A stretch of DNA of 4,637 nt from a virus (lineage: Duplodnaviria > Heunggongvirae > Uroviricota > Caudoviricetes): IMG/VR virus record IMGVR_UViG_2706794664_000007; one strand, 5' to 3'. Positions within the stretch are counted from its first letter, which is position 1; the number at the start of each line of letters is the position of its first letter. Shown piece after piece: positions 1 to 260 of this stretch. Under the pieces are notes generated by a model, which saw only the letters and a program-made list of their open reading frames with translations, ran no database searches and was not told where the DNA came from. Made by a program: the position numbers and the translations under genes.

Positions 1-260
1 AGGGACAGCTGATAGAAACAGAAGCCACTGGAGCACCTCAAAAACACCATCATACACTAAATCAGTAAGTTGGCAGCATCACCGTTTTAACGTTACTAAT
101 AAATCGTGAAACAATCTCCTCATTTGTTAGTATTTTCGCCTGAGCACAGCAAGAGGTTAATATTGCAACCGTCATTAAAAATGGCTTTATCACAAAACAA
201 ACTCCATTGTTAGCATGTTACGCGATAATTTTGCCTCATCTTTCACCACAAAAAAAGAAC

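Follow-up and report, generated by a model that had tools for sequence, protein, structure and literature searches.

Here, we describe the left end of a 4,637-nt stretch of DNA from a virus of the Caudoviricetes (IMG/VR record IMGVR_UViG_2706794664_000007; "the window" below means this whole stretch) and conclude, with a probability of about 93%, that a defective Shigella sonnei prophage, phiP27-like and with a Mu-type tail, has here received two insertions in its tail operon, one nested in the other: a cargo cassette, and then a copy of the insertion sequence IS1. In this reading, positions 84-193 are the start of a gene cut by a simple IS1 insertion; the window stops inside IS1, and the far side of the element in the source strain is taken to be that of genomes matching the window exactly. 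The features on which the argument draws are as follows (locus L006 is one of the exact-match genomes).

1-83, minus strand: outer end (IRL) of IS1, 83 nt, 100% identical to the IS1 of phage P1; the element runs off at position 1.
About 54-83: terminal inverted repeat of IS1, within the IS1 end at 1-83.
2-28, minus strand: first nine codons of insA, with a GTG start at 26-28; translation VASVSISCP.
1-68, plus strand: spurious antisense frame in IS1 (GQLIETEATGAPQKHHHTLNQ, then a stop); 39 codons in the full IS1, without Met.
84-92, no strand: one copy of the IS1 target-site duplication, gttttaacg, which is CGTTAAAAC in gene orientation; found on both flanks of IS1 in L006.
84-193, minus strand: 5' fragment of a 483-nt cargo gene; 110 nt, being codons 1-36 plus 2 nt, identical to the start of WP_000594909.1.
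194-260, no strand: spacer from the tape measure stop to the cargo start; 67 nt, 34.3% GC, part of the cassette and absent from phiP27.
202-205, minus strand: Shine-Dalgarno-like GGAG, 8 nt upstream of the cargo GTG (191-193), read from the sequence.
261-2210, minus strand: tail tape measure gene, 649 aa (PF10145 at 1.4e-44, phrog_28 at 4e-144); phiP27 homology resumes at about 264-270.
4546-4637: terminal IS600, 98.9% identical to annotated IS600 copies, at the right end of the window.

IS1 and the interrupted gene

The match of positions 1-83 to phage P1 falls on annotated IS1, namely its 'terminal IR of IS1' and insA, and the same 83 nt recur at about 72,700 sites across 4976 of the 5426 complete E. 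coli genomes. This IS1 end was overlooked in the first-pass annotation, which had been made from the letters of the window. When the insA frame is read through the full element it gives the InsA protein, and in L006 (an exact match to window positions 1-2388) both InsA and InsB frames are present, with Pfam Zn_ribbon_InsA, HTH_Tnp_IS1 and DDE_Tnp_IS1 recorded on the called genes. The element measures 768 bp in that locus, of which 83 nt lie inside the window; the published values for IS1 are 768 bp, with target duplications of 8-9 bp (PMC12428005). The terminal sequence of IS1 (GGTGATGCTGCCAACTTACTGAT...) is found at window 1-83, and both inverted repeats are found in L006. At every point open to comparison, from end sequence and length to inverted repeats, insA/insB' and a 9-bp duplication, the element agrees with IS1.

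In the 83 nt that the window shows, there is full identity to the end of IS1 (IS1 family, IS1A/IS1R type, Shigella), and the exact-match element is, like IS1 as expanded in Shigella, 768 bp long with imperfect inverted repeats, insA/insB' and a 9-bp duplication. The interruption of a gene here is like that by hundreds of other copies in S. sonnei. The element itself shows no differences, and what is specific is the insertion site only, at codon 37 of a prophage cargo gene. One further alignment was seen at this end: NZ_CP027586.1 1439485-1439601, near an MchC gene, aligns with window 1-116 across the IS1 end and 33 nt beyond it (91.6% overall), which is probably a megablast extension into another AT-rich IS1 target.

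A match that sets in at 84-86 and leaves out positions 1-83 was obtained with eleven E. coli chromosomes (96.5-100% identity); in these the cargo gene is intact and lies between the tape measure and DNA circularization genes, and the annotations under the matches are 'hypothetical protein' and 'tape measure protein'. Gene order in FDAARGOS_944 and AST215 is tape measure, a 160-aa CDS (WP_000594909.1 / WP_032245164.1), DNA circularization and baseplate, all on one strand. The annotated start of the 160-aa CDS in FDAARGOS_944 is the equivalent of window 193, and the first 37 residues of the protein (VIKPFLMTVAILTSCCAQAKILTNEEIVSRFISNVKT) are those of the window's minus-strand ORF. The first-pass annotation had seen no minus-strand ORF with a plausible start or ribosome binding site below the tape measure gene, which does not hold: the ORF running from 193 to 62 has the GTG and GGAG listed above, and over its first 110 nt it equals the intact 160-aa gene of other genomes, counted from that gene's annotated start. 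What had been listed as a 37-codon ORF lacking a ribosome binding site is an internal ATG of this ORF. The fragment encodes an export signal and the first residues of the 160-aa protein, and it reads on into IS1 to end in VMLPTY before a stop at 62-64, giving a 43-aa fusion ORF.

Complete chromosomes carrying the locus were reached by exact-protein look-ups. Window positions 1-2388 are present base for base in eight loci, one of which is CP014099 (S. sonnei FDAARGOS_90), and in these loci the gene takes up 1260 nt (483 + 768 + 9). In L006, the 768-bp IS1 sits between 9-bp direct repeats of CGTTAAAAC; the inverted repeats of the element in the exact-match loci are GGTGATGCTGCCAACTTA... and GGTAATGACTCCAACTTA..., and in-silico removal of IS1 and one repeat copy from L006 restores a gene identical at 483 of 483 nt to the intact gene of FDAARGOS_944. 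An exact search of the IS1/gene junction against a species-representative genome collection gave no match. In a draft assembly (GCA_000268045.1; L005 4880-6424), two complete IS1 copies lie head-to-tail at the same site, 8 nt apart, and this tandem could be a real duplication or an assembly artefact.

It is very improbable that IS1 in the source strain marks the end-point of a deletion, inversion or rearrangement, with a tail module that is truly truncated. The window does end in IS1 with the far side outside it, S. sonnei has hundreds of IS copies that recombine (PMC7373316), an oppositely oriented IS1 about 4.4 kb away in the baseplate J gene could allow an inversion, and S. sonnei 866 (L015, CP022672), whose tape measure protein is identical, has undergone a different IS event with an adjacent deletion in the same gene. 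In L015 12085-13280, an IS5-like element (ends GGAAGGTGCGAA...TTCGCACCTTCC) follows cargo nt 67, next to ...CTAA, and the sequence resumes just past the terminator, so that cargo nt 68-483, the terminator and any IS1 are deleted. Against a rearranged source strain, each of the eight loci that match window 1-2388 exactly has a simple insertion, the 9-bp duplication being intact and the remainder of the gene present, and a near match (L012) has the same insertion layout. A simple insertion thus remains the reading that we prefer.

IS copies also set the limits of the window. It is bounded by IS1 on the left and IS600 on the right because repeated IS copies are where short-read assemblies come apart. 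The exact tape measure protein occurs in 2042 blocks of the assembly collection, and in 1875 of these the longest carrying contig is 2-5 kb, figures that serve as a rough guide to the ratio of disrupted to intact loci. Hawkey et al. (PMC7373316) report that IS1, IS2, IS4, IS600 and IS911 have expanded in Shigella, IS1 having contributed most, and that about 45 new IS1 copies were gained in a burst on the branch to S. sonnei lineages II/III. The window further contains two runs of exactly 268 N (2389-2656 and 3772-4039), which in genomes with exact flanks hide 240 nt, where the tube gene ends and the tail assembly chaperone gene starts, and 248 nt within the sheath gene, respectively; because these masks alter length, the ORFs across them (2225-2758 and 3493-4530) are unreliable.

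The cassette between two tail genes

Over window positions 270-2300, phage phiP27 shares 96.8% nucleotide identity with the window. This Stx2e phage has a Mu-type tail (Mup39-Mup48 equivalents) in which the sheath, tube, chaperone, tape measure, DNA circularization and baseplate genes are collinear with those here, and its tape measure region is about 97% identical to that of the window. The two differ at one slot: phiP27 has a gene-free gap of 15 nt between tape measure and DNA circularization, whereas here the slot holds a cassette of about 600 nt and IS1. The resumption of phiP27 homology at about 264-270 is the left edge of the cassette, which places about 600 nt, with one AT-rich gene, exactly between the tape measure stop and the DNA circularization gene. 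A comparison with relatives had been proposed as a way to locate a break in synteny; similarity to phiP27 does end at the tape measure stop, but the tail genes go on after the cassette.

Beyond IS1, the order is a 68-aa remnant (the 3' end of the interrupted gene), DNA_circ_N, GpP-like, Gp45, GP46, Baseplate_J, Gp48 and fibre genes, all in the same orientation. The first-pass annotation had suggested that extending the sequence below position 1 would settle whether a module boundary lies there; in the exact-match genomes, the same-strand DNA circularization gene starts 1114 nt out, beyond IS1 and the gene remnant, and there is no boundary.

The prophage is clearly defective. Compared with phiP27, the S. 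sonnei copy is a remnant without head and regulatory genes and is riddled with IS4, IS600 and IS1. Upstream of the sheath gene, the head genes are gone in complete genomes, where the order reads bamD, IS4, a Peptidase_S78 fragment, IS600 and sheath. About 4.4 kb downstream, the baseplate J gene is itself split by another IS1, of opposite orientation (L006 17329-18027, and at the same place in L004 and L007-L014), and the two inverted copies bracket the DNA circularization to gp46 genes, an inversion-prone arrangement.

The cassette is made up of the 67-nt spacer, the 483-nt gene and a trailer of about 46 nt. GC content of the cargo gene is 36.9% and that of the cassette about 37%, compared to 52.4% for the rest of the window. 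Directly after the cargo stop codon, outside the window, lies a hairpin followed by a T-run (AAGCCGCCAGAAATTGGCGGTTTTTTT; L010 12506-12528), and a terminator-like element is kept at this position, with different stems, in a Yersinia prophage and in E. coli phage vB_EcoM-720R4. The stems recorded are GCCGCC/GGCGG, ACCGCC/GGCGG and CCGCG/CGCGG, at L010 12506-12528, L018 ~6465-6490 and L020 ~5495-5530. Since the element sits inside the tail operon, upstream of the baseplate genes, it implies read-through or antitermination during lytic growth. The same slot holds relatives of the cargo protein in a Yersinia enterocolitica prophage (74% identity), in phage 720R4 (URC09681.1, about 49%) and in a metagenome contig, which are all three of the further contexts covered. 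Between subfamilies, the upstream spacer is not conserved.

This arrangement recalls the morons of other phages, in the sense of Juhala and Hendrix, each of which is likewise a gene added between neighbours that a related phage (here phiP27) has side by side, with atypical GC content, their own terminator, presence or absence among relatives and, as predicted here, an exported non-virion product. It departs from them in that the cargo gene has no recognisable promoter, a scan of L010 11700-12800 having found no sigma-70 consensus, and in that the gene is inactivated in this prophage. With three of four moron hallmarks in evidence (extra gene, composition and terminator) and no sigma-70 site in the scan, we regard the interrupted gene as moron-like, its independent transcription being only putative. 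The first-pass proposal of a mosaic junction or inserted cargo gene was therefore right as to a cassette of about 600 nt with one AT-rich gene, and wrong as to direction: the gene lies on the same strand as the tail genes and is not convergent with them.

The encoded protein

The 160-aa protein falls in PHROG 5586 ('unknown function'). Sequence searches against Pfam, NCBIfam, PADLOC and PDB gave no match, and no Pfam family was found at E<=0.1 for any of 14 family members. The family is small, with 9 clusters among 5.8 billion proteins and 19 representatives at E<=0.001 among 1.84 billion. Nothing in Pfam or in PHROG 5586 places it in DNA_circ_N or another tail or baseplate family, and a gene of the Mu gp43 or DNA circularization type was rejected as its identity, the true DNA_circ_N gene coming after the 160-aa gene.

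All full-length members start with a predicted export signal. The signal of the S. sonnei/E. coli and Yersinia proteins fits either a lipobox (L-T/I-S-C; LTSC) or a signal peptidase I site (cut between AQA and K), and distant members have plain signal peptidase I sites (cut between A-x-A and K) that align with the latter. The cargo protein could be a lipoprotein, to judge by the fit of LTSC to a lipobox, but the signal peptidase I sites of its distant relatives align with AQA and K. A pair of cysteines, C67 and C150, is conserved. Structure was modelled from a 14-sequence alignment (pLDDT 83); the model from 8 sequences (pLDDT 41.6) was unusable. The predicted fold has generic beta-barrel similarity only, with no significant fold match, and the gene is thus predicted, on this model, to encode an exported small beta-barrel protein.

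The periplasmic and membrane-bound lysozyme inhibitors PliC and MliC, which are 8-stranded beta-barrels, were weighed as an identity but not adopted: Pfam and PDB searches gave no sequence membership, and no PliC/MliC chain was among the PDB profile matches at E<=1. The resemblance is one of fold class, with no sequence or profile match, and unrelated barrels (avidins, MoaF-like proteins and de novo designs) score higher.

An exported protein cannot be part of a virion assembled in the cytoplasm, which makes an accessory role in the envelope the likeliest. Our best guess, prompted by the export signal, is that the cargo protein may be a non-virion accessory envelope protein, for example a factor of lysogenic conversion or superinfection exclusion. 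A broader proposal is a long shot: that these proteins form an uncharacterised family of phage-borne, exported, disulfide-bonded beta-barrels (some 9-19 cluster representatives) with a fixed slot between tape measure and DNA circularization genes in Mu-type tails of Enterobacteriaceae and Yersinia prophages, that they act at the envelope, for instance by blocking superinfection or by inhibiting a lysozyme or muramidase, and that the knockout in S. sonnei, whether by IS1 or, in strain 866, by an IS5-like element together with a deletion, would have a phenotype as opposed to reflecting neutral decay.

We give very little credence to the view that the 160-aa gene is a regular, dispensable tail or assembly gene of the lineage that phiP27 has lost. 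The gene holds the same position in four divergent carriers and, with no promoter detected, is probably co-transcribed with the tail operon, as such a gene would be. Yet every member has a predicted cleavable export signal or lipobox together with the cysteine pair, which fits a periplasmic or envelope protein; its GC content is 15 points under that of its neighbours; it has its own terminator; the sequenced Stx2e phage phiP27 is without it; and PHROG 5586 carries no structural annotation. These points favour a gene brought in as cargo.

History of the locus and its meaning

The first-pass annotation had read positions 1-260 as an AT-rich non-coding stretch below the tape measure gene. Its assignment of the minus-strand ORF at 261-2210, with a stop at 261-263, to the tape measure was correct, and the AT-richness is borne out, with 34.5% GC at 84-260 and 35.8% at 60-260 compared to 52.4% at 261-4637. 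For the low GC content of 84-260, a binomial test gives p = 1.1e-6, and the 3312 other 177-nt segments taken from the remainder of the window all have 40.7% GC or more. The stretch is AT-rich because it has the composition of a foreign cargo cassette, and the gene appears to lack a body because the IS1 end interrupts it. It is not non-coding, since it contains a gene fragment at 84-193 and, at 1-83, IS1 with the first nine insA codons (28 to 2). Readings of 1-260 as a small RNA, or as a tRNA or attachment site, were ruled out, as its sole Rfam match, RsaJ, scores 17.8 bits where the gathering score is 100, and no tRNA was found in it.

That the stretch is a non-coding AT-rich spacer at a module boundary, with a convergent cargo gene ending at 66-68 on the plus strand, is scarcely tenable: the AT-richness is real and a plus-strand frame is indeed open from the window edge to a TAA at 66-68, but positions 1-83 are IS1, that frame lies antisense to the start of insA with 39 codons and no Met, a same-strand gene begins at 84-193, and DNA circularization and baseplate genes continue past IS1 in the same orientation as the tail genes in every complete exact-match genome.

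Two nested insertions would account for the locus as follows. In a first step, an ancestor of the prophage would have gained the moron-like, AT-rich cassette (about 600 nt) in the exact gap that separates the tape measure stop from the DNA circularization gene, and with it one same-strand gene for a 160-aa exported protein and that gene's own hairpin/T-run terminator. In a second step, during the IS expansion of S. sonnei, a 768-bp IS1 would have entered codon 37, with insA in the same direction as the tail genes, duplicating the 9-bp CGTTAAAAC and splitting the gene into the 43-aa fusion ORF and a 3' remnant. Breakage of the contig at IS copies would then have left the window to end 83 nt into IS1 on one side and in IS600 on the other. 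AT-rich DNA is, in the older literature, the kind of target that IS1 favours, and such a preference may have drawn the element to the cassette.

The timing of the second step can be narrowed with L010 (CP180280.1), in which the cargo gene is intact at 12018-12500. The IS4, the IS600-type (IS3-family) element and the baseplate-J IS1 of the S. sonnei loci are present there too, but the gene is uninterrupted, which suggests that the IS1 insertion in the cargo gene came later than those events. L010 also retains more of the left arm of the prophage (terminase, HNH).

A missing gene body, a phantom convergent ORF and a contig end all arose here because of the insertion sequence, and the practical lesson is that, before a gene-free, AT-rich 'boundary' at a contig edge is accepted as such, one should look there for an IS terminal repeat. 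The cargo protein has no annotated relatives, and its interest is confined to strains that carry the gene intact, such as E. coli FDAARGOS_944 and S. flexneri SFBU1023 (L016). For S. sonnei itself, the finding is an ordinary disruption of a gene by IS1 in a decayed prophage of an IS-rich genome, and of little biological weight; IS1 insertions in prophage remnants are a well-documented part of genome decay in this organism.
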